This document shows, piece by piece, positions 750-48,154 of a stretch of DNA of 64,000 bases (its first letter is position 1; the number at the start of each line of letters is the position of its first letter). The notes beneath the pieces were generated by a model that searched no databases, was not told the origin of the DNA, and worked only from the letters and a program-made list of their open reading frames with translations. Position numbers and translations under genes: made by a program. The stretch is from Candidatus Omnitrophota bacterium (GTDB lineage Bacteria; Omnitrophota; Gorgyraeia; Zapsychrales; Zapsychraceae). Location: the NCBI GenBank assembly GCA_029261055.1, contig JAJDCA010000038.1, positions 9,619 to 73,618 of the forward strand. Direction: 5' to 3'.

Positions 750-756
750 AGATTAG

Positions 757-845: not shown

Positions 846-861
846 TTAAAATTTCTTAACC

Positions 862-1071
862 TTAATAATGTGGCGGCCGCTCTTCCTCTTCTCTTGCACG
901 AACCAAATCCCCACTCGTAACTTGTTCTTTAAAACCTTTCAGGGCCCTCTCCAAAACATCCATTTTCTTCTGCTGATCAACAATCACTTCATTCAATTCT
1001 TCCAGCGCATGCTCCTGAAAAGCCATCTTTTTTTCTAATTCAATAATACGTTTTTCCATGCTTGCCCCCAT
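862..1071 (-). CDS. slyX: SlyX family protein
   Basis: 69-aa coiled-coil protein. The motif IELEKKMAFQEHALEELNEVIVDQQKKMDVLERAL is typical of SlyX. Confidence 0.7.
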   Translation of the reverse strand: MGASMEKRIIELEKKMAFQEHALEELNEVIVDQQKKMDVLERALKGFKEQVTSGDLVRAREEEERPPHY

Positions 1072-1073
1072 AT

Positions 1074-3116: not shown

Positions 3117-3183
3117 AATTTTTTAATCCATAAAATAATTTTTTCTTACATAATTTAACATAAAATACATCCAATACTAATAA

Positions 3184-4248: not shown

Positions 4249-5030
4249 TACTTCCCTTTTAACATATGCCTTTTTCTGCCGAAACCCGGCGCACGCACCG
4301 TTTCAAATCTATTCTTTATTAATCCTCGACGGACAAAACCTGTTGATGTGTAGGTACTTACCGTCGTACCCGCTTTAGATAATGGTGCCATTTTAGCAAA
4401 AACATCATCTGACCACATCTCCGGATTCTTAGCCGGCGCAAACCCATCTAAATACCAGGCATCCACCCCATAATTCTCCTTACGCATATCATCCAAGGCC
4501 AACACAACATGTTTTGTAATTAGACTCAATTTTATTTTTCCCTGATCAAAAGAGATATGTTCATTTTGATTAATCAATTTGGAATATTGGCCAACTAATA
4601 AGTCGGCATACTTATTTAACTCCGGCCATAATCTAAGTATCTTATCCAAATCTTCTTTGTTTAATGGAAATTGATCAATAGAAACGTATTGCAACGTCCA
4701 ACTTTTGGGCGCCCATTCCTGCCAAAGTAACCACGTGCACAAAAAATTTAACCCCGAACCGAAACCAGTTTCGCCAATCGTAAACGTCCCTGCCTGCGAT
4801 TCCGATAAACCTTGCCACCTTCGTTTTAATTCATTCCCCCCACAAAAAACATATTGAGATTCCAGCATGCCATTTTCTGCACAAAAATAGGGATCATCAA
4901 ATTGCGTAGATCGTGGCGCCCCATTATCGTCCCATTCAATCGGGGCATAATTTAACTTATGATTAATTAATTTTGGCATGGTTAATAATAATATAGCAAC
5001 GAAGAAAGTCAATGCAACATAAATACCCAC
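4239..5030 (-). CDS. mnmD: tRNA 5-methylaminomethyl-2-thiouridine methyltransferase domain protein (MnmD/DUF752)
   Basis: Motifs IEWDDNG...FDDPYF, GETGFGSGLNF and WYLDGFAPAKNPEMW are diagnostic of the MnmC methyltransferase domain. Confidence 0.65.
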   Translation of the reverse strand: MGIYVALTFFVAILLLTMPKLINHKLNYAPIEWDDNGAPRSTQFDDPYFCAENGMLESQYVFCGGNELKRRWQGLSESQAGTFTIGETGFGSGLNFLCTWLLWQEWAPKSWTLQYVSIDQFPLNKEDLDKILRLWPELNKYADLLVGQYSKLINQNEHISFDQGKIKLSLITKHVVLALDDMRKENYGVDAWYLDGFAPAKNPEMWSDDVFAKMAPLSKAGTTVSTYTSTGFVRRGLIKNRFETVRAPGFGRKRHMLKGKYCL

Positions 5031-5072
5031 ACAAAATATTGTTATAAAACCCTCATCTGCTACAATAATCTA

Positions 5073-6362
5073 ATGATTAAATCATCAAAAATTCTTTATG
5101 GAATATGTATTATTCTATTTTTTCTTTTCATCCGTATTTCTGACTCCCTTGCTGATAATTTAACAGATGAAGCGGCTCAATTATTTGACCAATGGCGAAG
5201 CGCTGTTTTTCAAGTCCGTGTCATTGATTTATCCACTCAAGAAAAATCTTCAACTGGATCTGGATTTTTTATTGACCCCAAGGGTTATGCCGTGACTAAC
5301 TATCATGTGGTCTCGTCCTATGTAAATAAACCAAGTAATCATAAAATTGAAATCATTAATCATGCAGGGGACATACAGGATCTTTCCTTGGTCTATTTTG
5401 ATATTGTCCATGACCTTGCTATTTTAACCACAAAAAAAGCCTCCCCCTTAACCTTATTGCTGAATCAGTCTGATCTTTCTCATGGAGAGAAAATTTTTTC
5501 CATGGGAAACCCGCATGACTTAGGTATGACCATTATCGAAGGAACATTTAATGGTTTAATGAAACAATCCTTAGACCGTAGGATCCTTTTCTCCGGATCC
5601 CTTAATCCTGGAATGAGTGGCGGCCCTACCCTTAATCATGAAGGAAAAATTATCGGAATTAATGTCTCAACAATGAACAATGATGTTAGCTTTCTTGTTC
5701 CTGTGGAATATTTAAATGCTTTAGTAGCTAAAATCGAACAAGAACCTGTTTTGCCTAACACAAATTGGGATCAACTAATCGAAAATCAATTAATTGAAAA
5801 TCAAGATCACTTTATCAATACTTACCTTAAACAAGAATGGCAAACTTCTAAACTTGGGGATGCCATCATTCCAGGAGAAATTTCCCCTTATGTAAAATGC
5901 TGGGGAGGCTCTAAAAACAGAGATGAAGATCTAATGATTAAAGCCATGACCAATTGTAGTACAGAAGATTATATTTATGTTAACGATTATTTTTATACAT
6001 CTTACTTGGATTATCGTTTCTCTTGGCATGAAAGTAAAAACCTTCATTTCCTTAGACTTTATGCCCATCTTCAGGATGATTTCCCAAAAATTAATTATTT
6101 AAATAATGCATCAAAAACTGATGTTGAACGATTTAAATGCCAAACTGATTTTGTTACCATGGATAACCGCGTTTTTAAAACAGCTTTGTGTTCCCGAAGA
6201 TATAAACGTTTTAAAAAATTGTATGATGTCAGTTTAGATTTTATGTCTGTAGACGAATATGATCGTTCATTAATGGGGGGATTAATATTAGAAGGTGTCA
6301 CAAAAACTAAAAGCCAAGAATTTATTAAATATTTTATGGAAAAAATACAATGGAAAAATTAG
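5073..6362 (+). CDS. Secreted trypsin-like (S1) serine protease with a C-terminal domain of unknown function
   Basis: Signal peptide. Catalytic triad context NYHVV (His), DLAIL (Asp) and GMSGGP (Ser). There is no PDZ domain. The roughly 200-aa C-terminal extension is unrecognised. Confidence 0.65.
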   Translation: MIKSSKILYGICIILFFLFIRISDSLADNLTDEAAQLFDQWRSAVFQVRVIDLSTQEKSSTGSGFFIDPKGYAVTNYHVVSSYVNKPSNHKIEIINHAGDIQDLSLVYFDIVHDLAILTTKKASPLTLLLNQSDLSHGEKIFSMGNPHDLGMTIIEGTFNGLMKQSLDRRILFSGSLNPGMSGGPTLNHEGKIIGINVSTMNNDVSFLVPVEYLNALVAKIEQEPVLPNTNWDQLIENQLIENQDHFINTYLKQEWQTSKLGDAIIPGEISPYVKCWGGSKNRDEDLMIKAMTNCSTEDYIYVNDYFYTSYLDYRFSWHESKNLHFLRLYAHLQDDFPKINYLNNASKTDVERFKCQTDFVTMDNRVFKTALCSRRYKRFKKLYDVSLDFMSVDEYDRSLMGGLILEGVTKTKSQEFIKYFMEKIQWKN

Positions 6363-7285
6363 TCATTGAAGTTATTAAACCAGGAAAAATGCACAATGAA
6401 TTTTGTGTATTCACTGGATCAACCATTCGTATTGGTCGTGGATTTAATAATGATGTCATTCTTGATGATGCCTTTGTTTCTTCTGAACATTGTGAAATTA
6501 TACGTGATGATGAAGGCATAAAAATAAAAGACTTAAACAGTAAAAATGGCATTTACAACATTAAAGCTAAACAAATCCAGACGGACCTGGCCATCCATTC
6601 AGGTGATAAATTTATTGTGGGCCGTACTGAATTGAGAGTTTATCTCTCTTCCCACACAGTTAAACCAGCTCGCCCACTTATCCCCCGACATAAAATCATC
6701 ACTGCACTTAGAAAACCAATAACAGCGTGGATTTTGTTTTCTTTATTAAGCGCTCTGGCCTATTTGACGGGAGTCATCACAACGATAGAAAACGGTAAAC
6801 AAGGACAGATAATATTAACAGCCGTTGTTATTACCGGTATTATGATCTTCTGGGCGGGATTTTGGGCTATTATTGGATGGATTAGCCGCCATAGATTGCG
6901 TTTTGGCATTCAATTGTCCATTGCCTGCCTCTGGTACATCCTTTATATGCTATGCTCATTTATTATTGATTATGCTGCTTTTTATTTTAACCGTAACCTT
7001 TTGTATGTCATTTTGATGGGGCTGTGTTTTACAATGATCACAATTTTAGGATATTTAGGACATCTGCACTTTGCCACACGGATGAAAACAAAAACAAAAA
7101 TAATTTCGGCGACTGTGATTACATTAATTATGTTGGGCCTATCCGGCGTGATTATGAACTTTTATCATGAATCTCAATATCTTCAAAAAGAATACTCTAG
7201 CTCTGTTAATCCTCCCTACCTTGGAAATCCCCCTGCTCATTCCATCGAAGAATTTATTCAAAAAACAAATAAAATTTTTGAATAA
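6350..7285 (+). CDS. FHA-domain membrane protein
   Basis: N-terminal FHA signature (IRIGRGFNNDVILDD..VSSEHCEI...DLNSKNG) followed by about 6 predicted TM helices. It overlaps the protease gene by 13 nt. Confidence 0.6.
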   Translation: MEKLVIEVIKPGKMHNEFCVFTGSTIRIGRGFNNDVILDDAFVSSEHCEIIRDDEGIKIKDLNSKNGIYNIKAKQIQTDLAIHSGDKFIVGRTELRVYLSSHTVKPARPLIPRHKIITALRKPITAWILFSLLSALAYLTGVITTIENGKQGQIILTAVVITGIMIFWAGFWAIIGWISRHRLRFGIQLSIACLWYILYMLCSFIIDYAAFYFNRNLLYVILMGLCFTMITILGYLGHLHFATRMKTKTKIISATVITLIMLGLSGVIMNFYHESQYLQKEYSSSVNPPYLGNPPAHSIEEFIQKTNKIFE

Positions 7286-7308
7286 AAGAACTAGAGCCAC
7301 CCCGTTTT

Positions 7309-7590
7309 TTATTCATATTCACACAGGTAAGCTGTATCTTGTTCAACCTTTGTTTTGAATTTTGATGCCGCAGGAATTTCAAAAGATGCGCCCACACCAA
7401 AATCTTCCCATTCATCATATTCAGCGAAATACACCGTTAAGGCTCCGGAAACCACCGTGATAACTTCTTTTGTTGTTGTATCAAATTCATACTCGCCCGG
7501 TTCCATAACCCCGATGGTCTTTCGATTGTCACCTGAATTAATACCGAAAGATTTCACCTTCCCTTCAAAATACTCCTTTACTTCAACCAT
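7309..7590 (-). CDS. ppnP: Pyrimidine/purine nucleoside phosphorylase PpnP (YaiE, DUF1255)
   Basis: 93 aa. EYFEGKVKS...GVMEPGEYEF...VVSGAL...YLCEY closely parallels E. coli YaiE. Confidence 0.75.
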   Translation of the reverse strand: MVEVKEYFEGKVKSFGINSGDNRKTIGVMEPGEYEFDTTTKEVITVVSGALTVYFAEYDEWEDFGVGASFEIPAASKFKTKVEQDTAYLCEYE

Positions 7591-7595
7591 TTCTC

Positions 7596-9266
7596 TTACT
7601 CCTTTTCTTTTTTTACAGGGCCAATGCCCCTTATTTTTTTAATAATACTTTCTGCAACCTTCATTCCATCAACCGCCGAAGAGACAATGCCTCCGGCATA
7701 TCCGGCACCTTCACCTGTAGGATAAACACCTGCAATAGTCGACTGAAAAAACTCATCCCGCGTAAATCTAACAGGAGAAGAACTCCGCGTTTCAACACCT
7801 ACAAGCACAGCATCCGGATAAGCAAAACCCTTAATCTTTCTATCCAGAGCAGGAAGCGCCTCTTTTATACTTTCAATAACATAATAAGGCAAGCACTCAT
7901 CTAACAAAGTCATCTTTACACCCGGTTCATACGTCGAAGACACTTCCCCGGAAGCTTTGGAAGGCTCTCCTTTTAAAAAATCACCAACGCGTTGAGCAGG
8001 AGCGCTGTAATTCTTTCCTCCCGCCACAAAAGCCTTTCGCTCCCACTTACGCTGAAATTCAATCCCCGCAAGAGGATGCTCAGACTCAAAATCATCCGGC
8101 GAAATATTCACGAGCAAGGCACTATTAGAATTTTGACCATCCTGAGCACATTCACTCATGCCATTTGTCACAACCCCACCTTCCTCTGAAGAAGAGGCCA
8201 CGACAAAACCTCCGGGACACATACAAAAAGTATACACCGAACGCTTGCCTTTAAGGTGGGCCACCAGTTTATATCTTGCCGTCGATAGCTTTGGATTATT
8301 ACAACAATGGCCATACTGAGATTTATTGATCAATTCCGTAGGATGTTCAATTCTAAGACCGACAGCAAATGACTTGGGTTTCATCCCGATTTCCTTATCA
8401 TAAAGCATTTGATAGGTATCCCGGGCAGAATGACCGATCGCAAGAATAAGATTATCTACCAGGATTTTCTCCTGACCATCAAAAATCGCCGCCGCAACTT
8501 TTTGATTTTCAATTTCTATATTCGTAAGGCACGTATGAAACCGCACCTCCCCCTTCAAACTTATTATCTTCTCACGTATTTTCTTTACAACCCCACGTAA
8601 TTTATCGGTCCCGATATGCGGATGGGCATCCGTCGCAATTCTTTGAGGAGCTCCCGCTTTGATAAATTCATCAAAGACATACTTCATCCTTGAATTCTTT
8701 ATATTGGTATACAATTTACCATCAGAAAAAGTACCTGCCCCACCCTCACCAAATTGCACATTTGAATTGATGTTCAGCTTACCGGATGAAAAAAATCGCC
8801 CCACATCTTTAACACGCGCATCAACATCGCCACCACGGTCAATAACCAAAGGCCTTAACCCCGCCTCAGCCAAAACTAAAGCACAGAACAATCCACTCGG
8901 ACCTGTACCAACGACAATAGGACGAGACACATTGTTAGAAGGAATTTCTTGAATTTCATAAAAGTAGGGTTCCTGTAAGCGTATTTTATGACGAAGAGCT
9001 TTCTTTTTTCTTACTGCAGAAGATTGTGCTTGTGGAGAAAAATAACTTTTAAGATTTTTTATTTGGACATTAACAGAATAGACTAAAAGGATATTATCTT
9101 TTTTACGTGAATCAATGGCTCTTTTTACAATAGCATAACCGACAAGCTCGCCTCGATTGATCCCTAAAATCTTTACAATTTTTCCTTCTAAAACGTCCTC
9201 TCCCTGATCAAGATTAAGGGTGATTTCTTCAATTCTAATAGAACTATTTTTGGAAATATCGGCCAT
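7596..9266 (-). CDS. FAD-dependent dehydrogenase (COG2509-type)
   Basis: Rossmann motif VVGTGPSGLFCALVLAEAG. Length and architecture are typical of the uncharacterised FAD-dependent protein family. Confidence 0.55.
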   Translation of the reverse strand: MADISKNSSIRIEEITLNLDQGEDVLEGKIVKILGINRGELVGYAIVKRAIDSRKKDNILLVYSVNVQIKNLKSYFSPQAQSSAVRKKKALRHKIRLQEPYFYEIQEIPSNNVSRPIVVGTGPSGLFCALVLAEAGLRPLVIDRGGDVDARVKDVGRFFSSGKLNINSNVQFGEGGAGTFSDGKLYTNIKNSRMKYVFDEFIKAGAPQRIATDAHPHIGTDKLRGVVKKIREKIISLKGEVRFHTCLTNIEIENQKVAAAIFDGQEKILVDNLILAIGHSARDTYQMLYDKEIGMKPKSFAVGLRIEHPTELINKSQYGHCCNNPKLSTARYKLVAHLKGKRSVYTFCMCPGGFVVASSSEEGGVVTNGMSECAQDGQNSNSALLVNISPDDFESEHPLAGIEFQRKWERKAFVAGGKNYSAPAQRVGDFLKGEPSKASGEVSSTYEPGVKMTLLDECLPYYVIESIKEALPALDRKIKGFAYPDAVLVGVETRSSSPVRFTRDEFFQSTIAGVYPTGEGAGYAGGIVSSAVDGMKVAESIIKKIRGIGPVKKEKE

Positions 9267-9272
9267 TAATTT

Positions 9273-10103
9273 TTACGCAACTCTTAGCTGCCCCTGATCA
9301 ATCGTAATTTTACGTTCTTTGTACAAAAGCCCCACGGCCATTTTATATTTCTTTTTACTCACTCCAAATGTATCGGCAATCAAATCCGAATCACTCTTAT
9401 CCGTAATTTTTGATACCCCGCCATTAGCCTTCATGTACGCCAAAATTTTTTCTGACAAATCATCAGGTTTTTGATACCCCTGCTTGTCGAGACAAAGATC
9501 AATTTTCTGATCTTCTCTCATTTTCTTGATGTAACCCTTAACTTTTTGACCAACACTCAATTCTTGAAAAACTTCACCCGCATACAAAAGCCCCATATGT
9601 TGATTATTGATAATCGCATTGTATCCCAAGGCCGTTTGCTCACAAATCAAAAGATCCACAGGATCATTTTCGGAATAAGCCATATTTTCCGTATCGATAA
9701 ATTTTTCAAGATCCGACGATGCCGCAATACGCTCCCTTTCTTCATCATAAAATATCTTAACAACATACGATTCGCCCAATACCATCTTTTCAATTTGCTC
9801 GCTAAAGGGCACAAACAAATCCTTAGGCATGCCCCAATCTAAAAAAGTCCCCACAGAAGCCACATCGACCACCTTTAAATACGCAAACTCACCGACATAC
9901 CCCATAGGCCAACGCAGCGTTACAGTCATTTGATCATTATTATCACTGTAAAGAAAGACTTCTATCCAATCGCCTTTTTTGTAATTCCCTTGAACTTCTT
10001 CGGCAGGAAGTAGCATCATACCAAATTCTTTGGCGTCCAGATATAAACCCAAATCTACAACATCCTTCACTTCTAATTTATTAATTTTTCCGATTTCAAT
10101 CAT
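9273..10103 (-). CDS. cvfB: S1-domain RNA-binding protein CvfB/YitL family
   Basis: Tandem S1-like segments (GDWIEVFLYSD..., KVVDVASVGTFLDWGMPKDLFVPFSE) resemble B. subtilis YitL. Confidence 0.65.
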   Translation of the reverse strand: MIEIGKINKLEVKDVVDLGLYLDAKEFGMMLLPAEEVQGNYKKGDWIEVFLYSDNNDQMTVTLRWPMGYVGEFAYLKVVDVASVGTFLDWGMPKDLFVPFSEQIEKMVLGESYVVKIFYDEERERIAASSDLEKFIDTENMAYSENDPVDLLICEQTALGYNAIINNQHMGLLYAGEVFQELSVGQKVKGYIKKMREDQKIDLCLDKQGYQKPDDLSEKILAYMKANGGVSKITDKSDSDLIADTFGVSKKKYKMAVGLLYKERKITIDQGQLRVA

Positions 10104-10246
10104 TATTTATTCCTTTTTTGCATAACGATCCGTACTTTTCCAGGTATAAAAAAACCCCTCTCTTATTTAAAGGGGACATCTACAACCTCTTTCTGGGGAA
10201 ACCCTTAACTTTCTAAGTGGAAAGTATAATCTTTTTCTTCATCTTG

Positions 10247-10474
10247 TCAATCTTGAATAAAACGAAACCTTGGAAATTCTTTTCCCTCAACAATAACGTT
10301 CTCTGAAAACATAACCCGCGGCCGAACCCAAAGCGAATCTTCCCCAAATTCTGTTTTATACAAAGCCTTATAAACAACCAATTCCTCAACAGTTTCACTA
10401 TGATGCGCCACACCAATCACCTCATACCGTTTTCCTTTGTAATGCTCATATATTCCTTTTTGCATCTCTTCCAT
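10247..10474 (-). CDS. DUF1653 domain protein
   Basis: YEHYKGKRYEVIGVAHHSET...LVVY..LY...LWVRP is the DUF1653 signature. Confidence 0.6.
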   Translation of the reverse strand: MEEMQKGIYEHYKGKRYEVIGVAHHSETVEELVVYKALYKTEFGEDSLWVRPRVMFSENVIVEGKEFPRFRFIQD

Positions 10475-10496
10475 AAAGAAATCCTTTGTTCATGCG

Positions 10497-11216
10497 TTAT
10501 AAAAATTTAACAAAACTCATACCCAAGCCGATCAATCCACCAAATACGCCACCCCAGACAACAAGCCAGCCAAGATGTTTGCGGATCATTTCTTGAATAA
10601 TTTCTTTCACCATTTTAGGTGTAAGTTCATTCAGCCGTACATCGACAATTTCTTCAACCTTCTTAACAACTTCGGAACTGAGATGCGATGGAAGAATATT
10701 TTCCTCAAGAGCTTTAAGAAACGCTTCTGTTTTCGTTAAATCATGAACTTTAATTTTGATCTTCTCAATAAACGGTGCCCGCATCGGCTCAAGCGCTTTA
10801 ATCCCACCAAACATACCCAACATGCTGCCAAAATTTGACTTAGCCACCACTTCCAGCAGCCCGTTAAATACTTCATCAAAATTAATGGCACTAATCAAAG
10901 GATCAAAATTCATATGCGCAACGGTTGAATTCTTTTGCCCTTGAAAAAAACGATCCACATTCTCATCTGTAAAAAATTCCGACATGATCAAATGTTTAAT
11001 CCCCGCTTTAAATTCAATAAACCGACTTGGAATCACCCCTGACCCATACAAAAACGGAACCTTCTCAAACAACATATAAATCGCCAACCAATTAGTAACC
11101 GCCCCTGAAAACGCAAAAAACCCAACAGAAAGAATCTGCTCCCTATAAACCGGCGAAAAATACCCCACGATAATCGTGAGAATAGCTATTACGTTCGTAA
11201 TAAGACTTTTATTCAT
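10497..11216 (-). CDS. DUF445 family membrane protein
   Basis: N-terminal TM helix and a GAVTNWLAI.MLF...P.G.G.IP block. Confidence 0.5.
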   Translation of the reverse strand: MNKSLITNVIAILTIIVGYFSPVYREQILSVGFFAFSGAVTNWLAIYMLFEKVPFLYGSGVIPSRFIEFKAGIKHLIMSEFFTDENVDRFFQGQKNSTVAHMNFDPLISAINFDEVFNGLLEVVAKSNFGSMLGMFGGIKALEPMRAPFIEKIKIKVHDLTKTEAFLKALEENILPSHLSSEVVKKVEEIVDVRLNELTPKMVKEIIQEMIRKHLGWLVVWGGVFGGLIGLGMSFVKFL

Positions 11217-22522: not shown

Positions 22523-22765
22523 ATGCAAGCATCAATTGTGGACCTGCGCTATAAAATGAATGACATCCTTAAAGCCCTTAATCGTAATGAATCGATAACA
22601 ATCCTTTATCATGGCAAAAAAAAAGGCCTTATCGTGCCCACTACGAAAAAACCTGCTCAACATGTGACAGATCATCCTTTTTTTGGTATGCATAAAACGT
22701 CTGTCAAAGAAAGCGTGCCCCAAACCATAAAAAATCTTCGTAAAGGGCGTTATCATGATCTTTGA
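22523..22765 (+). CDS. vapB: VapB-like antitoxin
   Basis: 80-aa ORF overlapping the downstream PIN-domain gene by 11 nt. Confidence 0.5.
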   Translation: MQASIVDLRYKMNDILKALNRNESITILYHGKKKGLIVPTTKKPAQHVTDHPFFGMHKTSVKESVPQTIKNLRKGRYHDL

Positions 22766-23132
22766 TACAGATATCCTTATTTGGGTTCAACGCGGAAACC
22801 TGAAAGCTGCCAAACTTATTGAAAAATCTTCTAAACGTATTATTTCTATCTTCACCTACATGGAACTTCTACAACATGCCACTTCCAAAAAACAGCATCA
22901 ATACACTAAATCTTTTTTAACGGATTACAATTTTGAAGTTCTGCCTCTTACAGAAAATATTGGTCACCGCGCACTTATCTACCTCGAAGAATATGGATTA
23001 AGCACAGGACTGTCTGCAGCTGATGCCATTATTGCGGCGACGGCCGTTGAAAGTAACCTTGCTTTAGTAAGCGGCAATCAAAAACATTTTAAGGTAATTC
23101 GCGACCTGTCCTTACAAATCTTTAAACCTTAA
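22755..23132 (+). CDS. vapC: PIN-domain toxin VapC
   Basis: MIFDTDILIW, DAIIAATAV and NQKHF carry the PIN acidic residues. Confidence 0.75.
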   Translation: MIFDTDILIWVQRGNLKAAKLIEKSSKRIISIFTYMELLQHATSKKQHQYTKSFLTDYNFEVLPLTENIGHRALIYLEEYGLSTGLSAADAIIAATAVESNLALVSGNQKHFKVIRDLSLQIFKP

Positions 23133-26100
23133 ACGATTTCAGATTTTCATTTGGATCACGAGCGAGGATGTCATGTTGTGCATTAAGCCAAGCCTCTTCG
23201 TTTGGCAAATCTGATTCGCCTAACCCAAGCAACTGCACAACCGGCACAAACGTCACCCCGCGCAAAATCGGCACAAACCCTTTCACCCGCATACTCAAAT
23301 CCGCCGGCTGCATATCAAATGGCAACGGCACGCCGCGCCCATCCCGCCTAACCTGTAAATCCAACATCGCCGCATCCAAATTAATCCCACCGAGAGCATC
23401 TATCTGCGCGTCCCCTCCCTGAAAAACATCCACACCTTCAGATAACATGGCAATATCACCTTTTTTAAAACGAAAAAAGCCTTTCTTGAAATAAGAAGAG
23501 TCTTTATATTCTTCAATTTCCATCCCCTCGCTAGAATTAATAAACAATTTAACCCCGTCTACAATATTCCACAAAAAATCCTCCCCTAAATATTCCAGCT
23601 CCTCCCCTAAAACGACATAGTTGGGATAATTAAAAACCCCTTCATATTTTTCACGAACACCTTCGATAAACATAAAAAATTTCAATCCAAGAGCCTTTTG
23701 TCTATTCTCATCAGATCTTTTTTCGGCCTTACTTTTTAACTTCAAAGAAGAAAAGAAGTCCTTTAAAGAAGGTAAAATCCCTATCATTTTCCCTGGATAT
23801 CTATTTTGAAATTTTTTAATAGCCCCCAAAATATCTCCATCCTCTAAATTACGGACAATTCCCTTAAGCATGATTCTATCCCTATCTTTTTCGTCACCTG
23901 TATCCTGTTTTATATTCTCATCCTTAGCAAACCGTACAGCAAATTGTTTTTTCCTCGAAATAATAATCGTCCTTTCTTTACGCCCGTTATATTCTTCAAA
24001 TTTAAGCTTATATTCGTTCCGATTCTTCTGATCTTGAATGATACGAACCTTTATATTTTTTTTGCTCTTGATATCATAAAATACTGTTCCATAGTACAGC
24101 CCTGTTATCCAGTCATCCTTGTGAGTTAAATTTCTAAGAAGAAAATTCTCAGCCTCATTAGTATGCTTCCCATTCATGTCTTTATTACTAACACTCTGAT
24201 ACGCATCAACAATAAATTTTCTATCTTCATTTCCCACCTGTTCATCTGTCACTTCCCCCATCATCGCAAAATCCGCCTCGCCTACTATGACGTCCAGCAT
24301 ACGGATGATGCGGTCGTAGATACTTTCCTCATAAAAATTTAAATCAGAATCTTGATCAGAATCGTAGAAATCATACTTTTTAATAATCGTCGTTAATTCT
24401 CCACCTCTAATATCCTCAATCAATTTCGACATTTGACCAACCTTACGCTGACCATTCGTCCTCATATCACTTACAAAACCTTGCCAGGATTGCCTTTCCT
24501 TTTTCCAGTATTCCTCGTCTTTTTCCAGATCACTATTCCATCCTGACCCTGATGACACCTGATATAAAGGAAAGAACCTCTCAAAATACTCGCTATCCCA
24601 CTGAGCCAGCTGATTGCCGTAATTAGCTAAATTTCTTTCCATTTCATCAACAACCATCTTTTGACCTTTAAATGTCATCTCAATAATAGTCGTCAATTCC
24701 AAGAAAATACGCCTTTCCGACAAATGTGCCGTCTTAAGTGATTCAATTAACCGTGACTTTTTCTTCTTATCAAGTACATTTATAATAATGTTCCTTAAAA
24801 AGTCTTTACCCGAATTATCTAAGCCATAGTGGTAAATATTTTTTTGTTGCAAATGATCTTCTGAAATACTTTTACCAAAAGTACCATCATCCTGAATCCT
24901 ACGGATAAAATTCGCCGTATCCTGAAACAAATCAGGATCGCTTGTTTTTATTTTCTTTAAATACGCATTAACTCTATTTTCCAACTTCTTTTTCAAGTGC
25001 GTAACGGCATTAAATATACTTGCGGTCTTCTCCTGATCACGCCCGTGATCCACATACCCAAAACTTAAATAATACCCAACACCTTCATCAAACAACACAT
25101 CCTTCCCCATCAAACGCTGCACTTCATGAACAATTTCTTCAGGAGTTGTTATTCCTGATAAAATAAAATTAGAATCGATTATCTTCCCAACAGCTTCATC
25201 GATTTCCATAAACATCGCCACATCACCCTCATTTTCTTCACTCTTCCCTAAAACCCCCTGTACTTTTTGCGTTAATTCATCGATGCTAGTAATACTAACA
25301 ACATCTTTAACATTATTATGCAGCTCCATAATCGCCTCTTTTAGATAAGGATGCGCTAAAACAAAAACTGGAATATTGCGACCTATATCATCTGCATTTA
25401 ACCACTCTAAAAAAACATCTGAAGTATAATATGCAGGCACATTTTCATCAAACACACCCTCATCAAACACTTCTCCTGCGATCACTAAATCTATTTTTGT
25501 ATCCTCATCTTTAATCACGTCACGCGCCTGTTGTTGCGTTGTGATAAAAATAAGTTCATATCCTTTATCGGACAAAGCATTTTTAATCATTTCTTGATTT
25601 TTTTCCGATTTCTCCATCACAGCAATCACCGGAAGCCCCGTCTTTTTTTTCTCCTTAACAGTTTTCATATTGCCTGTAGTCTGTGAGTTCCCATTGTTCA
25701 AAGAATTTTTAATCTTGCCAAACTTCACTTCAAAAGGCCATTCTGAATTGATAATAATCTTTGTTATTTCACGAGGCTTCTGCCCTTCACTTTTTTTTAT
25801 TTCTTCAAACGTAATATGATACGTTATATCATTCTTTGAACGAATGACTTTAATATCCGCGTCTTTATGAGTTTTGGTATCCATAAATTTATCGACATCA
25901 TCCCTCTCAATTTTAACCTCACTTAAATTATTAACTAAAAACACATCCGCCTCATTGTGATTTCTTGAATTAATCCTGGCATCAACTACATTCAATATTT
26001 TCTGAATACCCGCCTTTTCCTCCAAAGATAACTCAGCATCACGTGCTTCCCCCATCATCGCATAATCCTGAAGAACCTTAAGAACGATCTTGGCCTCTGG

Positions 26101-29100
26101 CATGTCTAAATTTTTAAGAATGCGCCTTTTTGTATTTTCATCGATAATCATAAACTCATCATGACTTTGACCCGTAATCGCTTCATTAAACTTATTGCGA
26201 ATAAGCACTTCATTTTCTACACGATTACGTCCTAAATCAGCAATATTACCAAGCAAATGTATCCTTTGTTCTTGCTGTTCAAGAACATGCTCGATCATTT
26301 TTCGTGCTCGCTGTTGATATTTCTGAATAATTTTTTCCGGTAATTTAAGGTCATAACTATCTGATCCATCTGGTTGACTAAACAACCATGTTATTTTCTT
26401 ATTTTTCATATCTTTTAAAAAATAAATGGTCTTATTTAATGGAGGCACAATCAAACTACTTAACCACTTGCCTTTATATGGAATAAGACTACTATTTTTA
26501 TCAATATCCACATTAACATATTCTTTCGGCATAGAAATTTCTAAAATTCCGTAATACAAAATAGTTTCATGAATTTCCGACAAAGATACTTTTGAAGTAA
26601 CCATATTATGAATTTTCATAAAACTCAAATTAATCTCCTGTTGCTTGCTTTGATCAAACAGATCAGTTAATTTTTCATAAACTGTATTTGAATCTATATG
26701 CTCATTGATAATACCTAACGCTTGTCGATACACATCACTCATGAGACTTTCTAAAACATCGGGAAAAAATAATTGATTCACTGCATCCATCTCCTGTTCC
26801 ATTTTTTCCATAAATTCAATTAATTCCGGCGTAGACTCTTCATCATATCGTAGTTCCTCAATATCTTCTATTTTTCTGGAAATACTCGCCCCTCTTGTAT
26901 ACCCCGCAATTTTCCATTTTCTAAATACTTCCATCCCAGCTAATTTATTCGAAAGTTTTTCATTTTTCTGTTCTATTCTTTTAAGCTCTTCCGAAACATC
27001 ATCCAAAGTTAAATTTCTCTGCATGTCATTAATCATCGCATCATCCACAATCTGTTCTATAATTTCACTACCCTCAACAATAAGATAATATTTATCAGAA
27101 TTATCTGGTTTGTAGAACTTCTTTCGTGGTGATTCATTATTAACGAGCGTCTTAATTTCGCTCCTCTGTCCCTCAAGCTCTAACGGTAAAAAATGAATAA
27201 ATCCTCCTTTAAGAATAATGACATCATTTTCTTCCTCAGTTAAAAAATCCAAGTCTTCGTAAGCTATCTCCGTCACCCTTGCATCAAGGTTAGGTTCAAT
27301 TTCTTCTTTTATGTCCTGTAATATGTTTGTTCGTGTTAATCGTGAAGGAGGATTTCTCTTTTCTTTGCTTGATAATCCTCGCCTCTCTAGCAGCCTTTGA
27401 TAAGCCAGTGCATTACTACTGAAAAGACCTTTGTTCTTCTCTAGCGCATTTTCAATAATTTTAATCCATTCCTCCACTTCATTATGATCTTTAGCCCAAG
27501 ATTTACCTGGGGGTATTTTTTTTATTGCCTTAAACGCTGCCAAAATCCCCATCTCCGTTAACTCTTCCGAGATCATCTGAACACTTTCCGCTTGAAAATC
27601 CTGATTCTTCTTATCCAAACGATTACGAACATCGCTATCTAAATCAATAATTACAAAAGGGGCTTGGAACTCATCGTACGTATCCCAGACATAACCCACG
27701 CGATTCACATAAGGCTTTAGCCACTCAAACAACTTCTCCTTGTCCCACACCCCCCACTCAACCGATCCACCCTGATCAACGATTAGCACACGCCTATTAT
27801 TAACCAATATTTTATCTAATTCTCCCTTTTCTATAGGCAATATGCCGCGTACGTTGACGGATGCCTCCACTCCTTCACGCTCAATTTCTTCTTTGACATA
27901 AAGAGGGTTTGAAGGAAACAATTCCACAATTGTGTTTAAATCAACATAATTAGCTCCTGTAAACCACGAAAAATTATCTGCCACTCTAATATTATTAAAC
28001 AAATCCTCACGGGATAAGGGCAATGAAGGATCTAAAGAAAATTCAAAAACTTCTTCATTTAATAAATTAACCTTATTTAAACGCACTTCACGCTTAACAT
28101 ACTCATAACTCAAATCATCATCACCGCCTAATCCAAGCTCGTTCACTGACCCACTATCACCCAAAGGTAACTCTCTGATTTCACCCTGCCGTTTTTGTAC
28201 AAAAGAAGATACAGCTTTATTTCCAAAAACCCCGTCAAAAAACTCATCTACACGATGCCATAGAATGTCATCTTCCCTTAACCTTTCACTAAGACTCGTC
28301 TTGGCCAACATCCCTAAAATTCTTATCCCTGCAATTAAATTTGGAACCTTATCGCTATGATGCAAAAGATAATTAATCAACACGGGATTAAGAACCTCAT
28401 GCCCAAGATCATATTTTGCCACCATACGCGCCAATGCCCCTAACGCCGAAAGCAACCTTCTCTCATCTTCCGGCTGTGCTTCGGGCAAAGTAGACACATA
28501 ATATGCACGCAAAAATATATCCCCCAAAAACTCTTTGATCTCTATCGTTAAATCATGATTTTCAATACTTTCCCAAAACCCGGGCACATTCAAAAAGCCT
28601 TCCAGCACTTTCCTGCGTAAAGGATGTGCAGATTGCTCATATTTTTGCCATGACATTCTTCCTACCTTATTAGCCTCAAATTCTATTGAGTCAGTATTTC
28701 CTCGGTTTATTTTTTCTTTCAAATGAGTGTTAATATCCCTAAAAATAGCCTCCACATTCAACATCGCAGAATCCTGTTCCCTCCCTGCTAAATTAAAAAT
28801 ATCCAGGTGTCGTGACGTAGCCGCCTCTTCCCCCAAACTCGCCAAATCAACTGTGGCGCTCATGGCGCTTTCAGAAATAAATATGGTTGCGACGTCGTTG
28901 ATCTGTATATCGGTTGGGTCGAGTGTGGTGAGCATGGCAAGACTGATTTCTATCCCGCCGGAGAAGTATTTGCGGGGGATGATTTGGTCGGTCGCGGCGT
29001 CGTAGTCCTCTTTGATGTAATCGTAAACACCTTTGCGGAATGAATCGAGATATTGGTCGTAGATTTTTTGTGTCATTTGTTTATCTTCGGTGTCGATGCC

Positions 29101-30036
29101 TTTGATTTTGTTTTGATCGACATAGACTTGTCCTAACAGCGATTGTTTGAGGTTTTGTTTGTACCACGCGGCGAGGATCATGGCATGATAAATCTGACGG
29201 AGATTGGCAAAAGTTTTGCCTTCGTTGACTTCGTGTTCGATGGCGGGTAACAAAATATCGCGAATGATAGACGTTGTAATATTTGAATGCGTAGGGGTAT
29301 GATTTATCATGCCCTTGTCTTGGGTTTGATGAATCAAACCCCTACGATCCGCATGTTCCATCGCTAAATAATCTTCCTCCAACATCACCTTCAAATGACT
29401 CTCCAACACATAGGTCGTGGCGGTGGCTTCGTGTTCATAGACGACAGCCTTCTCCGGTACGATCCATACTTTGTGAAAGGTATCCATTGGGATATCTGTC
29501 GTACCGAATTCAGCCTGTGCGCGTTCGTAAACACGCGTCCAAAATTCTTCCCCTAAATCTTCTTCCGGATGCATCAACGATGAGGTCAGCTGTTTCAACA
29601 TATAATCTTGCGCAAGCATGTCGCGCCCCATATCTGTTTCGCCTAACCCTCCGGCGATAATGCGATCCGGTTCATTCGGGCTTAAATTCACCCACATTTC
29701 TTTCTCCGGAACCGTCAAAGCAGCCAAAAAATATTTGACGAGTTTGGTGATTTCCGTATTCAAGGCTTCACCTTGCGGCATCGCCGTATCTCCGGAATCA
29801 ATAATAAAATTGAATTTAAGCGGATTATCGGGATGGATGGTAATACCACGCACCATTGTAGGCATAAATGCATCAGTCGGCCCCACAAAACTTCCGGGTA
29901 TCGGCAGGTTTACTACAGATTGTGCTGGCATCTGCGCATAACCTGGAGGAACTAAAGTGATCATTATAAAGACAATCACCATAAAAAAAGATAGAATTCG
30001 ATAAAAAACCTTCATTTTTTTGTGTTCTTTAAACAT
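23122..30036 (-). CDS. Giant secreted multidomain protein (2304 aa) of unknown function
   Basis: Uninterrupted 6.9-kb ORF with an N-terminal signal peptide. Residues 40-380 are paralogous to ORF 1074..3116. There is an internal duplication (..DYAMMGEARDAE.. / ..DFAMMGEVTDEQ.. units). There is a degenerate receiver-like region (VIAVMEKSEK...IDLVIAGE...). The C-terminal GGINLD...VKGFVPI motif is shared with the paralogue. Confidence 0.8.
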   Translation of the reverse strand: MFKEHKKMKVFYRILSFFMVIVFIMITLVPPGYAQMPAQSVVNLPIPGSFVGPTDAFMPTMVRGITIHPDNPLKFNFIIDSGDTAMPQGEALNTEITKLVKYFLAALTVPEKEMWVNLSPNEPDRIIAGGLGETDMGRDMLAQDYMLKQLTSSLMHPEEDLGEEFWTRVYERAQAEFGTTDIPMDTFHKVWIVPEKAVVYEHEATATTYVLESHLKVMLEEDYLAMEHADRRGLIHQTQDKGMINHTPTHSNITTSIIRDILLPAIEHEVNEGKTFANLRQIYHAMILAAWYKQNLKQSLLGQVYVDQNKIKGIDTEDKQMTQKIYDQYLDSFRKGVYDYIKEDYDAATDQIIPRKYFSGGIEISLAMLTTLDPTDIQINDVATIFISESAMSATVDLASLGEEAATSRHLDIFNLAGREQDSAMLNVEAIFRDINTHLKEKINRGNTDSIEFEANKVGRMSWQKYEQSAHPLRRKVLEGFLNVPGFWESIENHDLTIEIKEFLGDIFLRAYYVSTLPEAQPEDERRLLSALGALARMVAKYDLGHEVLNPVLINYLLHHSDKVPNLIAGIRILGMLAKTSLSERLREDDILWHRVDEFFDGVFGNKAVSSFVQKRQGEIRELPLGDSGSVNELGLGGDDDLSYEYVKREVRLNKVNLLNEEVFEFSLDPSLPLSREDLFNNIRVADNFSWFTGANYVDLNTIVELFPSNPLYVKEEIEREGVEASVNVRGILPIEKGELDKILVNNRRVLIVDQGGSVEWGVWDKEKLFEWLKPYVNRVGYVWDTYDEFQAPFVIIDLDSDVRNRLDKKNQDFQAESVQMISEELTEMGILAAFKAIKKIPPGKSWAKDHNEVEEWIKIIENALEKNKGLFSSNALAYQRLLERRGLSSKEKRNPPSRLTRTNILQDIKEEIEPNLDARVTEIAYEDLDFLTEEENDVIILKGGFIHFLPLELEGQRSEIKTLVNNESPRKKFYKPDNSDKYYLIVEGSEIIEQIVDDAMINDMQRNLTLDDVSEELKRIEQKNEKLSNKLAGMEVFRKWKIAGYTRGASISRKIEDIEELRYDEESTPELIEFMEKMEQEMDAVNQLFFPDVLESLMSDVYRQALGIINEHIDSNTVYEKLTDLFDQSKQQEINLSFMKIHNMVTSKVSLSEIHETILYYGILEISMPKEYVNVDIDKNSSLIPYKGKWLSSLIVPPLNKTIYFLKDMKNKKITWLFSQPDGSDSYDLKLPEKIIQKYQQRARKMIEHVLEQQEQRIHLLGNIADLGRNRVENEVLIRNKFNEAITGQSHDEFMIIDENTKRRILKNLDMPEAKIVLKVLQDYAMMGEARDAELSLEEKAGIQKILNVVDARINSRNHNEADVFLVNNLSEVKIERDDVDKFMDTKTHKDADIKVIRSKNDITYHITFEEIKKSEGQKPREITKIIINSEWPFEVKFGKIKNSLNNGNSQTTGNMKTVKEKKKTGLPVIAVMEKSEKNQEMIKNALSDKGYELIFITTQQQARDVIKDEDTKIDLVIAGEVFDEGVFDENVPAYYTSDVFLEWLNADDIGRNIPVFVLAHPYLKEAIMELHNNVKDVVSITSIDELTQKVQGVLGKSEENEGDVAMFMEIDEAVGKIIDSNFILSGITTPEEIVHEVQRLMGKDVLFDEGVGYYLSFGYVDHGRDQEKTASIFNAVTHLKKKLENRVNAYLKKIKTSDPDLFQDTANFIRRIQDDGTFGKSISEDHLQQKNIYHYGLDNSGKDFLRNIIINVLDKKKKSRLIESLKTAHLSERRIFLELTTIIEMTFKGQKMVVDEMERNLANYGNQLAQWDSEYFERFFPLYQVSSGSGWNSDLEKDEEYWKKERQSWQGFVSDMRTNGQRKVGQMSKLIEDIRGGELTTIIKKYDFYDSDQDSDLNFYEESIYDRIIRMLDVIVGEADFAMMGEVTDEQVGNEDRKFIVDAYQSVSNKDMNGKHTNEAENFLLRNLTHKDDWITGLYYGTVFYDIKSKKNIKVRIIQDQKNRNEYKLKFEEYNGRKERTIIISRKKQFAVRFAKDENIKQDTGDEKDRDRIMLKGIVRNLEDGDILGAIKKFQNRYPGKMIGILPSLKDFFSSLKLKSKAEKRSDENRQKALGLKFFMFIEGVREKYEGVFNYPNYVVLGEELEYLGEDFLWNIVDGVKLFINSSEGMEIEEYKDSSYFKKGFFRFKKGDIAMLSEGVDVFQGGDAQIDALGGINLDAAMLDLQVRRDGRGVPLPFDMQPADLSMRVKGFVPILRGVTFVPVVQLLGLGESDLPNEEAWLNAQHDILARDPNENLKSFKV

Positions 30037-30265
30037 TTTATATAAATCTCCTATTTGAAACCGTTTTCTTGGGTTAGATACAGTAAAGATACCATATTTT
30101 CAACAAATGACAAACGTACCCAAACAGCCTTTATTTATGTTGTAACTGAAAGCAATCAAATAAGATATAAACATCTATATAATTATGTAAAAAGCACAAA
30201 AACCATAACCTATTTGTTTTCATATGGTTATATCCTTTAAAATAACGGATTTTTTCATCAAAAAA

Positions 30266-30287
30266 GCCCAGTCTCATAGACTGGGCT
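30266..30287. terminator. Bidirectional rho-independent terminator hairpin
   Basis: AAAAA-GCCCAGTCT-CATA-AGACTGGGC-TTT. It lies downstream of the minus-strand gene 30438..30890. Confidence 0.6.
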
Positions 30288-30437
30288 TTAAAAGTTGTCG
30301 CTGGTATTGGCTGTATCTAAATAGGCATTGCCTGGCCGAAATAATAGAGATCCCTATTATTTTATATAAATTTTTTGGGGATAGTAATGATTATAACGCC
30401 AGTAGGGATAAAACTTTTTAATATGCGCCATACGCCG

Positions 30438-30890
30438 CTATATCAACGTATTTGAATTATCCATCAAGGCTTTAATTTCTTTAATTTGCCCCATTTTAAA
30501 CTGTATTAACATATCAAACAAATCTTTTGACTGTGTATACACCAGAACATCCCTCAAATGCTTATAGTATTTTTCAATTTCTTCCTCATACATTAAAACC
30601 TTATACATAATTTCTTCTCCAGAAGCCTCATTCGAGATTTCACATTGGCAATAGTTTTCTTTAATTGTATACTCAGGCAAATTCTTTATAAATTCAGAAT
30701 CTTTGTACTCATCCATATTAATACTATCAAATACTTTCAAATGCTTAATCTGCCTCTCCTTTAATGTCACTACAATCCCTTTTGATCGTACATCGTGCAT
30801 TGTTTGTTCCATATTCTCATAACAAACCAATAATCGTTTTTCCCAACCAATAATCGTACGTAATATTTGATCTAATCTTTGAATAGCCAT
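30438..30890 (-). CDS. Hypothetical protein
   Basis: 150-aa ORF with no recognisable motifs. Confidence 0.4.
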   Translation of the reverse strand: MAIQRLDQILRTIIGWEKRLLVCYENMEQTMHDVRSKGIVVTLKERQIKHLKVFDSINMDEYKDSEFIKNLPEYTIKENYCQCEISNEASGEEIMYKVLMYEEEIEKYYKHLRDVLVYTQSKDLFDMLIQFKMGQIKEIKALMDNSNTLI

Positions 30891-47395: not shown

Positions 47396-48154
47396 ATGGC
47401 AGAAGAAATTTTTACGACTCAAGAATTAGCTGAATATATGAAGGTTAATGAGAAAACAGTTATCAAACTAGCTCAAGCGGGGGATCTTCCAGGGTTTAAG
47501 GTTGGGAATCAATGGAGGTTTAGCTGGACTATGATTGATCGATATATGAATGGACACGTGTTTGATTCCTCTGATGAAAATATGGATATCATTCTTAAAA
47601 CTAAAGATCATATTATTCCTTTTTCGCGTTTGACGGATGAAACCATTATTAATTTGGATTTACGTGCAGATAGTAAGAGAAAAGTCATTTCTGAATTAGC
47701 ACGCATGTCACATACTGCAAGGTTGACACCTTCTTACGAAGGTCTTTATATTGCACTAGAGGAGCGGGAAAAATTGTTAAGTACGGCTGTTGGCCAAGGA
47801 GTAGCATTGCCACATCCACGTTTTCCTGATCAGATGACATTCAAAGAACCACATATTGTTATTGCCCGTTCAAAAATAGGGGTAGAGTATGATGCTCCAG
47901 ACAATAAAAAAGTTCATCTATTTTTTATGCCCTGTTCACAATCTCAATTTGTTCATTTGCGTTTGTTAGCAAAGATTTCTAAGCTTCTTCACATTCCTAA
48001 TGTTATCGATCGTTTTATGCAAGTAACAAGTGCGAAAGAAATTATTCAAATATTAATGGCGCTTGAACAGGAACATTTATTACCTACAGATGATACGAAT
48101 CATGTTCAAAAAGTGATTGATGAACAAAACGAAGTGCAGGAGAGGCAAAAGTGA
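47396..48154 (+). CDS. Excisionase/MerR-type HTH fused to a PTS EIIA(Ntr/Fru)-type domain
   Basis: N-terminal TQELAEYMKVNEKTVIKLAQAGDLPGFKVGNQWRF (HTH_17). C-terminal GQGVALPHPRF..HIVIARSKIGVEYDAPDNKKVHLFFM carries the conserved EIIA-2 histidine. Confidence 0.6.
   Translation: MAEEIFTTQELAEYMKVNEKTVIKLAQAGDLPGFKVGNQWRFSWTMIDRYMNGHVFDSSDENMDIILKTKDHIIPFSRLTDETIINLDLRADSKRKVISELARMSHTARLTPSYEGLYIALEEREKLLSTAVGQGVALPHPRFPDQMTFKEPHIVIARSKIGVEYDAPDNKKVHLFFMPCSQSQFVHLRLLAKISKLLHIPNVIDRFMQVTSAKEIIQILMALEQEHLLPTDDTNHVQKVIDEQNEVQERQK

Follow-up and report, generated by a model that had tools for sequence, protein, structure and literature searches.

A sharply bounded tract with inverted strand skew in the conserved head of a giant Omnitrophota gene

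Organization of the giant gene

Our subject is a giant gene on the minus strand of contig JAJDCA010000038.1, from a Candidatus Omnitrophota bacterium, studied in a window of 64,000 nucleotides, by which we mean the whole stretch of DNA that was analysed. The encoded protein has a conserved N-terminal domain, here called the head, followed by a very long variable middle and a conserved C-terminal module. An earlier reading of the window, the original prediction in what follows, had proposed that the GC-rich beginning of this gene is a mosaic or recombined module fused onto a locally evolved tail. We show that the step in GC content belongs to the normal architecture of the protein family, and that the head contains a tract of 396 base pairs, the patch, which carries the synonymous-site signature of the opposite DNA strand and is a real anomaly of this particular gene. 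The features on which the argument rests are these, in window coordinates:

23122..30036, minus strand: giant open reading frame (ORF), 2,304 codons
29932..30036, minus strand: N-terminal hydrophobic segment, signal-peptide-like or anchor, amino acids 1-35, ending in ...LVPPGYA/Q, read from sequence
28942..29904, minus strand: conserved family head domain, amino acids ~45-365, from homology and alignment
28748..30036, minus strand: GC-rich 5' island, GC 0.448, GC at third codon positions (GC3) 0.497, from segmentation
28855..29250, minus strand: C-rich, G-poor patch with inverted strand skew, codons 263-394, 396 bp, from four-state segmentation
28759..28773, minus strand: first D-x-A-M-[LIMF] motif, DSAML, amino acids 422-426, just ahead of the GC3 breakpoint at codon 429
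23422..28747, minus strand: AT-rich variable middle, rich in K, E, I and L, GC 0.357, GC3 0.33
23122..23421, minus strand: second GC-rich island, the conserved C-terminal module, amino acids 2206-2304, with GGINL and DAAML motifs
1074..3116, minus strand: 680-amino-acid paralogue, head at 2013..3116

The database product of the giant ORF, P0133, starts at the second ATG and has 2,297 amino acids. Its residues 7-365 share 51% identity with the N-terminal part of the 680-amino-acid paralogue, the only other copy of the head within the window, whose leader also reads as hydrophobic and signal-peptide-like; the longest exact word common to the two heads is 12 nucleotides. The AlphaFold2 model predicts a helix at residues 2-28, and folds the head into two subdomains, at residues ~55-232 and ~250-368, with a poorly conserved variable loop between them (predicted local distance difference test score 73, predicted template-modelling score 0.69). 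Neither the giant protein nor its paralogue has a Pfam or NCBIfam match at E ≤ 0.1, except for a sub-threshold KaiA_N hit to a weak pseudo-receiver-like stretch of the giant middle (amino acids 1471-1519, E = 0.075). A Foldseek comparison of the head model with the PDB gives no match at E ≤ 0.001, and the sequence-profile matches of the head to PDB entries, all to huntingtin, were discarded as spurious hits to low-complexity tails.

Strand asymmetry of the window

Third codon positions in this window depend on the strand that carries the gene: minus strand genes have more G than C, and plus strand genes more C than G. Three measures summarize the contrast:

C / G at four-fold sites: minus strand genes 0.16 / 0.24; plus strand genes 0.30 / 0.14
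NNC/(NNC+NNT): minus strand genes 0.15; plus strand genes 0.29
G-ending codons of lysine, glutamate and glutamine (K/E/Q): minus strand genes 0.36; plus strand genes 0.13

As the bias goes with the DNA strand rather than with transcriptional direction, it would be replication-associated, in which case the minus strand, with 31 of the 42 other genes analysed, would be the leading strand.

One whole gene departs from this pattern. The plus strand gene at 47396..48154, with HTH_17 and PTS_EIIA_2 domains, has the codon usage of the minus strand: the log-likelihood ratio (LLR) of plus strand against minus strand usage is -9.1 per 100 codons, all its windows of 132 codons score between -11 and -14.5, and its third positions have 0.21 G and 0.07 C. 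Probably the gene was inverted, or switched strands, in the recent past.

A 396-bp tract with inverted skew

When the third positions of the giant gene are segmented with four nucleotide states, only two breakpoints are significant, between codons 262 and 263 and between codons 394 and 395, with log-likelihood (LL) gains of 28 and 50, where permutations reach at most 8.9. At a support of 2 LL units the edges lie within codons 255-264 and 393-397 (29244-29271 and 28845-28857), that is, they are resolved to 10 codons or fewer, and the three-segment model that includes the patch gains 78 LL units.

Within the patch, the fractions of C and G at third positions are 0.48 and 0.10, compared with 0.16 and 0.29 in one flank and 0.08 and 0.26 in the other. 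This is not a matter of amino-acid content: taking expected counts from the codon usage of the 31 same-strand genes, a control used throughout, C-ending codons number 63 where 15.4 are expected (z +13.3), and G-ending codons 8 where 23.3 are expected (z -3.8). The NNC fraction is 0.57 against 0.15 in same-strand genes, four-fold sites have 0.57 C and 0.12 G against 0.16 and 0.24, and G-ending K/E/Q codons fall to 0.11 against 0.36. The G-fraction of R2 codons drops from 0.40 to 0.11, and G is avoided in every codon class, K/E/Q included. The patch thus carries the synonymous signature of the opposite strand: C for G at four-fold sites, NNC for NNT, and AAA, GAA and CAA for AAG, GAG and CAG. 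Its LLR of opposite-strand against same-strand usage is +40.6, the highest value in the window. The 218 same-strand windows of 132 codons have a mean of -14.1 (standard deviation 5.9) and never exceed 7.6; the 74 opposite-strand windows average +12.8. No other gene of the 64-kb window contains a comparable block.

The patch extends over subdomain 2 of the head and a linker of 29 codons (amino acids 366-394) that has almost no homologues. In this linker, C-richness is also present at the first and second codon positions, with a skew of -0.15 against +0.28 in the middle. Since it persists in a segment with almost no homologues, the C-richness tracks the history of the DNA rather than the conservation of the protein.

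The comparison with other members of the family rests on 64 loci drawn from GTDB species representatives, in which 78 homologous genes were mapped onto the coordinates of the giant gene. The part of the head that precedes the patch, codons 51-262, behaves as is typical of the family: relative to the middle of its own gene, C-ending codons are raised by 0.10 and G-ending codons by 0.03, and the native strand skew is kept. The patch, relative to the same middle, gains 0.39 in C, where the family maximum is 0.26, and loses 0.15 in G (z -4.1, the lowest z in the family being -2.2). The contrast within the head lies 4.9 standard deviations outside the values of 65 family genes, which scatter symmetrically about zero (mean +0.01). 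In L002, compositionally the closest genome, the homologous region is not C-rich. The 396-bp tract of inverted skew is a real, gene-specific anomaly.

Only one other gene of the 72 family genes examined, L044_7944 (CAIOPG010000017.1), has an internal C-rich patch in its head, at query positions 200-354. Its third positions have 0.49 C and 0.21 G, against 0.25 and 0.39 and 0.16 and 0.32 in the flanks; the position resembles that of the giant's patch, and the edges are different.

The GC step along the gene

The compositional description given in the original prediction holds in most of its parts. It had the first ~1.1 kb of the ORF GC-richer than the rest and than the paralogue: GC is 0.449 in 28800..30036, 0.367 in the rest of the ORF and 0.381 in the head of the paralogue (2013..3116), and the GC-rich strings that were quoted do occur, at 29416-29461 and 29521-29540 as read on the plus strand. 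It had an abrupt change near 28.8 kb: likelihood segmentation of all positions places breakpoints at 28747 and 23421, with a GC of 0.448, 0.357 and 0.517 in the resulting segments, and segmentation of GC3 places them at codon 429 (window 28749, LL gain 17.6) and at codon 2205 (window 23421, LL gain 9.1), the largest gain in 200 permutations being 8.8. The three segments have a GC3 of 0.497, 0.330 and 0.545. What follows the step is, as had been claimed, A/T-rich and dominated by Lys, Glu and Ile codons, to which Leu must be added. However, the step does not fall where homology to the paralogue ends: this happens at residue 365 (window 28942), about 190 nucleotides upstream. The description also omitted the C-terminal island of 99 codons, which is GC-richer still than the head.

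Codon usage follows the same division. The hydrophobic leader is not enriched in GC-ending codons (11 observed and 13.6 expected in codons 1-50), while the head is, both before the patch (codons 51-262, 89 against 63.3, z +4.1) and in it (codons 263-394, 71 against 38.7, z +6.5). In the middle (codons 430-2205) the count is at the genome expectation, 522 against 516 (z +0.3), and the last 99 codons again exceed it, with 50 against 31.3 (z +4.2) and an enrichment of G-ending codons (z +5.3). Two outcomes had been named as fatal to the original prediction, a GC3 profile without a significant step and a codon usage that follows the genome average on both sides; what is found is a drop of GC3 from 0.50 to 0.33, and a head that departs from the genome expectation next to a middle that does not.

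Taken over codons 51-394, the head has a GC of 0.674 at four-fold sites (GC4) and a GC3 of 0.523, above every window of 340 codons in the 42 other genes, whose maxima are 0.593 and 0.497. For a comparison with the codon usage of highly expressed genes, the window offers no ribosomal or other translation genes; a high GC3 is seen in the genes of a topoisomerase, a short-chain dehydrogenase, a transporter, a histidine kinase and a response regulator. The head of the paralogue shows a mild enrichment in C-ending codons (z +2.9), with a muted bump in codon usage at the homologous position.

The GC step as a property of the family

The family to which the giant protein belongs is large and nearly restricted to one phylum. 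An indexed protein search with the head returns 1,416 relatives, of which nearly all the named ones come from Candidatus Omnitrophota, and an exhaustive HMMER search with residues 255-400 returns 6,884 cluster representatives, in proteins of 240 to 4,743 amino acids, with the matched region at residues ~250-370. Genomes hold several copies: UBA10174 has at least 10 in the loci fetched, and five lie on one contig at locus L052. Many database members are cut short at contig ends.

The layout shown by these proteins comprises a signal-peptide-like N-terminus, a conserved head of ~330 amino acids, a long and fast-evolving middle, and a conserved C-terminal module of ~90 amino acids. The alignment of 48 heads, with the giant as its first row, has 46 invariant residues, among them W115-V-N-L, D144-Y and Y357..G360-G361. 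A GG[IVL][DN][LFM] motif occurs within the last 120 amino acids of 48 of 65 family genes, and BLASTP detects homology to the giant's C-terminus in 29 of the 65. The giant itself has the leader and the head, GGINL at amino acids 2216-2220, and a head richer in GC-ending codons than its own middle. This middle (amino acids 431-2150, 1,720 residues, 23587..28746) has its own product as sole homologue among 8,000 candidates scored in a library of 5.8 billion proteins, which agrees with the proposal of a locally evolved tail.

Heads and tails could be compared in 72 genes with a usable tail, from ~45 Omnitrophota genomes. GC3 is higher in the head than in the tail of the same gene in 65 of the 72, by 0.09 on average (p = 4e-12), and by 0.13 at four-fold sites. 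A significant third-position breakpoint is present in 22 of the 72 genes, and 20 of the 27 breakpoints found in the first 600 codons are at positions 350-449, the boundary between head and middle. Many genes also have a GC-rich terminal segment: GC3 is higher in the C-terminal module by 0.08, with the same sign in 25 of 29 genes. The GC4 of heads follows that of the neighbouring genes (r = 0.76, mean offset +0.009, standard deviation 0.086), and middles lie below their neighbours in 47 of 51 cases. Given this correlation with their own genomes, heads are native as a rule, and the GC step is a property of the family. Both the step at 28.75 kb and the other island, at 23.1-23.4 kb, thus belong to the normal family architecture, and neither is the scar of a single fusion.

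As to the cause of the family contrast, the excess of GC-ending codons in heads is nearly independent of the conservation of alignment columns, from +0.11 to +0.15 at four-fold sites and without trend at two-fold sites; being flat, it is a property of the whole module. Selection for translational accuracy at conserved residues is unsupported, the excess being equal in the least and the most conserved columns. The excess is also specific to C, with +0.07 to +0.09 C-ending against about +0.02 G-ending per codon, and symmetric GC-biased gene conversion, a process proposed for bacteria (PMC4450053), is thus a poor fit.

The exchange of modules can be seen at locus L055 (CAYZLU010000029.1), where two adjacent paralogues, the ORFs 241..5370 and 6173..11104, have 98.7% DNA identity over their first 1,157 nucleotides and 84% identity over 140 nucleotides near the 3' end, with middles at 31% amino-acid identity. 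This pair is direct evidence of conversion limited to a module, or of the swapping of middles. Elsewhere, three contigs classified as viral in IMG/VR (L072-L074) encode a family head at 47-51% identity, none of these heads being close to that of the giant; they may be prophage-bearing or misclassified Omnitrophota contigs.

Motifs and neighbouring features

Two short motifs recur in the giant protein. D-x-A-M-[LIMF] is present at amino acids 422, 998, 1324, 1605, 1922, 2194 and 2221, and at amino acid 597 of the paralogue; the middles of the 72 family genes have 94 occurrences, when shuffling predicts 2.4. In the giant, the first copy and the last two coincide with the GC3 breakpoints at codons 429 and 2205, and the motif could serve to delimit modules or to mark sites of processing. 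The motif F[VM]Pxx[VL]RG[IV]T is found twice, as FMPTMVRGIT at the start of the head (amino acids 57-66, ~29839..29868) and as FVPILRGVTF in the C-terminal module (amino acids 2253-2262, ~23251..23280); BLAST also pairs the C-terminal copy with the head copy of the paralogue. This repetition may reflect complementation between strands of head and tail, or a common recognition signal.

At its 3' end the giant ORF overlaps by 11 nucleotides a converging PIN-domain gene, 22755..23132 on the plus strand. On the other side, a hairpin with a T-run behind it (AAAGCCCAGTCTATGAGACTGGGCTTTTTT) lies at 30262..30290 (minus strand), downstream of the gene 30438..30890 and before the AT-rich promoter region of the giant gene.

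Origin of the patch

The best explanation that we can offer is that the patch is a tract of gene conversion or homologous recombination, and we give it a probability of roughly 40 to 50%. As donor we envisage a closely related head from the same subfamily, whose evolution would have taken place on the opposite replication strand, in a relative richer in GC or in another genome. Of the two crossovers, one would fall inside the conserved subdomain 2 and one close to where the head module ends, and the tract would not yet have re-equilibrated to the strong local mutation bias of G over C. The patch has the marks by which such tracts are recognized, sharp edges and statistics discordant with both flanks, and it is in frame and encodes the correct domain. 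C-rich heads in GC-richer relatives do exist, for example L011 and L054, and the L055 pair is a precedent for conversion limited to the head. A recent strand switch would leave the wrong-strand usage that is seen in the gene 47396..48154, a precedent in the same window. To this extent the original proposal of a mosaic or recombined module stands: the gene is modular, its head is distinct at synonymous sites, the segment 28855..29250 looks recombinant, and a relative shows head-limited conversion.

Several observations weigh on the other side. The exhaustive HMMER search found no near-identical donor: among its top 150 cluster representatives, the best non-self match to the patch has 80% amino-acid identity. 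In the indexed search the corresponding figure, over its best 120 hits, is 78%, and the best DNA identity is ~75%. No sequence close to the patch was found by a protein search with the patch (15 candidates scored), in JGI metagenomes by exact DNA words, in IMG/VR, or in the GTDB species representatives, among which the source genome is not included. This negative is weaker than it looks, since the source genome is absent from those representatives and since the indexed search is incomplete: with the head as query, it missed the giant's own product, which the searches with the middle and the exhaustive search recovered. If there was a recent donor within the genome, it is unsampled or lost. Neighbour relations are alike for the patch and for the remainder of the head (rho 0.63, with a family mean of 0.50), without incongruence at the protein level, so that any donor must be a close relative. 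The patch is also C-richer than any window of opposite-strand genes of the genome, whose LLR reaches at most 27.6; a donor from the same genome thus fits only if its head was itself strongly C-enriched. Finally, heads have a weaker excess of C-ending codons throughout the family, and L044_7944 has a similar patch, which makes a cause in situ possible; and recent conversion is seen in only one of 97 pairs of paralogues within genomes.

Some other sources of the patch were considered and set aside. If the giant's head belonged to a C-rich lineage of heads, similarity to the patch should rise with C-richness, and the two are uncorrelated (rho -0.04). A template copy in the window, in the manner of diversity-generating retroelements, was sought, and apart from the patch only the paralogue matches, with 68% identity. 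An antisense gene under the patch is excluded by the antisense frame that pairs its first position with the sense third position, open over only 35 codons. An ORF of 92 amino acids on the plus strand, 28727..29005, is in another frame and covers the patch only in part.

Four other explanations must be weighed against recombination, of which two bear on the head as a whole. The whole pattern, patch included, might have arisen in situ, without any import, if conserved modules are under stronger codon selection or undergo GC-biased gene conversion. The contrast between head and middle and the C-terminal island are family-wide, C-ending enrichment is general to heads, and biased conversion has been proposed for bacteria (PMC4450053). 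However, neither process predicts the loss of G-ending codons in the patch, visible in the R2 G-fraction and in a z of -3.8 for G at third positions, nor its confinement to codons 263-394 while codons 51-262 stay typical of the family; furthermore, the independence of the excess from residue conservation is an argument against accuracy selection, and its C-specificity one against symmetric biased conversion. We thus hold this explanation to be improbable. Still less probable is the model of the original prediction, in which the whole head is a foreign or pre-existing module, recently fused to a locally evolved tail in one event. The abrupt step, the orphan middle with its genome-typical codon usage, and a head GC4 that is 0.26 above the local background, an excess unmatched in 51 family comparisons (z 2.9), would all be accounted for. 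Yet codons 51-262 keep the native skew and remain within the family range, no close foreign head is found (the best match, in the indexed search, has 63% identity over the head), and one fusion at the 5' end leaves the equally GC-rich C-terminal module unexplained. The step also recurs in dozens of genomes, with 65 of 72 genes showing the contrast and breakpoints clustering at the same boundary; it is no evidence for any particular fusion, and this part of the proposal is not supported.

The two remaining explanations concern the patch alone. It could be an element selected at the level of RNA, C-rich, G-poor and weakly structured, such as a loading site for Rho (rut-like) or an element acting on the speed of translation. 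The patch is the only stretch of the 6.9-kb messenger RNA in which C exceeds G (it has 0.29 C and 0.17 G, the middle 0.12 C and 0.25 G), and for its GC it is the least structured segment, with a folding energy of -70 kcal/mol when -102.5 is expected (residual +3.7 standard deviations). Such selection would agree with the avoidance of G in every codon class, K/E/Q included, with the weak C-ending excess of family heads and the muted bump of the paralogue at the same place, and with the failure to find a donor. But it would have to act on ~130 synonymous sites, with edges sharper than 10 codons, and on the nearly homologue-less linker as well; the 65 family genes have no systematic shift to C in this subdomain (mean +0.01, symmetric), and L002 is not C-rich there. 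There is no Rfam match near the gathering score, the folding z-scores are 0.33 in sense and 0.07 in antisense, and no terminator-like site is found on the strand of the gene downstream of the patch. We regard an RNA element as rather unlikely, and more doubtful still the particular form in which the patch, 0.8-1.2 kb from the start codon, would act as a Rho-loading or translation-coupling checkpoint that gates the transcription of a costly orphan tail of 5.7 kb. A structured RNA was rejected on the Rfam and folding scores, and the scans for an antisense promoter or an intragenic terminator gave nothing of use (11 promoter-like sites against 7.7 ± 3.3 in shuffled sequences, and a single terminator-like site, on the plus strand). 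There is also the possibility of an assembly artefact, in which reads from a related strain or a paralogue were threaded through the conserved head. The source contig, of 145,582 bp, is derived from a metagenome, and the multiple copies of the family, with many members cut short at contig ends, show that heads break assemblies; a double switch would yield a foreign block with sharp bounds. However, the reading frame and the conserved residues run unbroken across both junctions, the 3' junction is in nearly homologue-less sequence where paralogues have no common k-mers, and no exact word of more than 12 nucleotides is common to the two heads of the window. Moreover, a source close enough to have the k-mers of an assembler in common should not show differences at over 30% of third positions. 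An artefact is thus quite unlikely, and recombination remains the explanation that we prefer.

Significance

A GC step inside a gene is, by itself, no proof of fusion: here it is a standing property of a whole family, and the aberrant block could be isolated only by an analysis of synonymous sites that takes the strand into account. The analysis also outlines a very large family specific to Omnitrophota, with at least 6,884 cluster representatives and proteins of up to 4,743 amino acids, without a relative in Pfam, NCBIfam or the PDB. The Omnitrophota are believed to be nanobacteria, host-dependent or predatory, that have many giant genes (PMC10066038; bioRxiv 10.1101/2023.11.21.568195); the papers that we consulted on their giant proteins contain no description of this head domain or of any compositional structure. 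A modular secreted family in which the conserved ends now and then recombine is a plausible source of surface or effector diversity. The giant gene offers a clean case of mosaic composition within one gene; the protein family concerned is very large, undescribed, and found in an uncultured phylum.

Comparison with known systems

The nearest compositional parallel is offered by the Rhs, or YD-repeat, genes. In Escherichia coli, these have a GC-rich core and AT-rich tips. Like the present family, they are multi-copy modular genes in which conserved and variable modules differ sharply in GC at the junction; they vary by recombination at the conserved part, and a GC peak marks core fragments (PMC2935791). 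The giant gene does not belong to this group, as RHS or YD repeats are absent from the Pfam and NCBIfam searches and the head has no fold match in the PDB. The organization is different as well: Rhs genes have a conserved core and displaced C-terminal tips, whereas the conserved module here is N-terminal, with a second one at the C-terminus, the variable part has thousands of residues without a recognizable toxin and immunity pair, and heads follow the GC of the host genome instead of looking foreign. Nor does the family have the symmetric enrichment in G and C by which GC-biased conversion is recognized: its heads gain C-ending codons and hardly any G-ending ones.

At the level of RNA, the patch can be compared with rut sites, extended RNA segments with more C than G and little structure. 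It has more C than G over at least 80 nucleotides, and its predicted structure, computed in silico only, is low. However, it lies in a translated region, its composition (C 0.29, G 0.17) is less extreme than that of classical rut sites, and the feature is not conserved in the family; it is an in silico candidate for a Rho-loading site.

Mosaic genes produced by homologous recombination or gene conversion are the closest model of the patch itself. The pbp genes of pneumococci contain mosaic blocks, and the msp2/p44 genes of Anaplasma undergo segmental conversion with conserved flanks. As in these genes, a sharply bounded, in-frame block encodes the same domain with statistics unlike those of its flanks, within an otherwise native gene, and the L055 pair indicates that the conserved termini of the family can serve as handles for recombination. 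Three differences should be kept in mind: the donor alleles or cassettes of the known cases are identified, while no donor was found for the patch; the patch is visible only through synonymous composition and strand skew, not as divergence from a reference allele; and with one converted pair of paralogues in 97, there is no evidence here of programmed variation.

Local inversions of GC skew, lastly, mark DNA that was recently inverted or moved to the other strand. The skew of the patch is that of the opposite replication strand, and the whole gene at 47396..48154 carries a wrong-strand signature of this kind too. However, a physical inversion cannot preserve a coding segment in frame. Since it would break the frame, the strand switch would have to be placed in a donor copy of the gene, and the segment would have been transferred afterwards.

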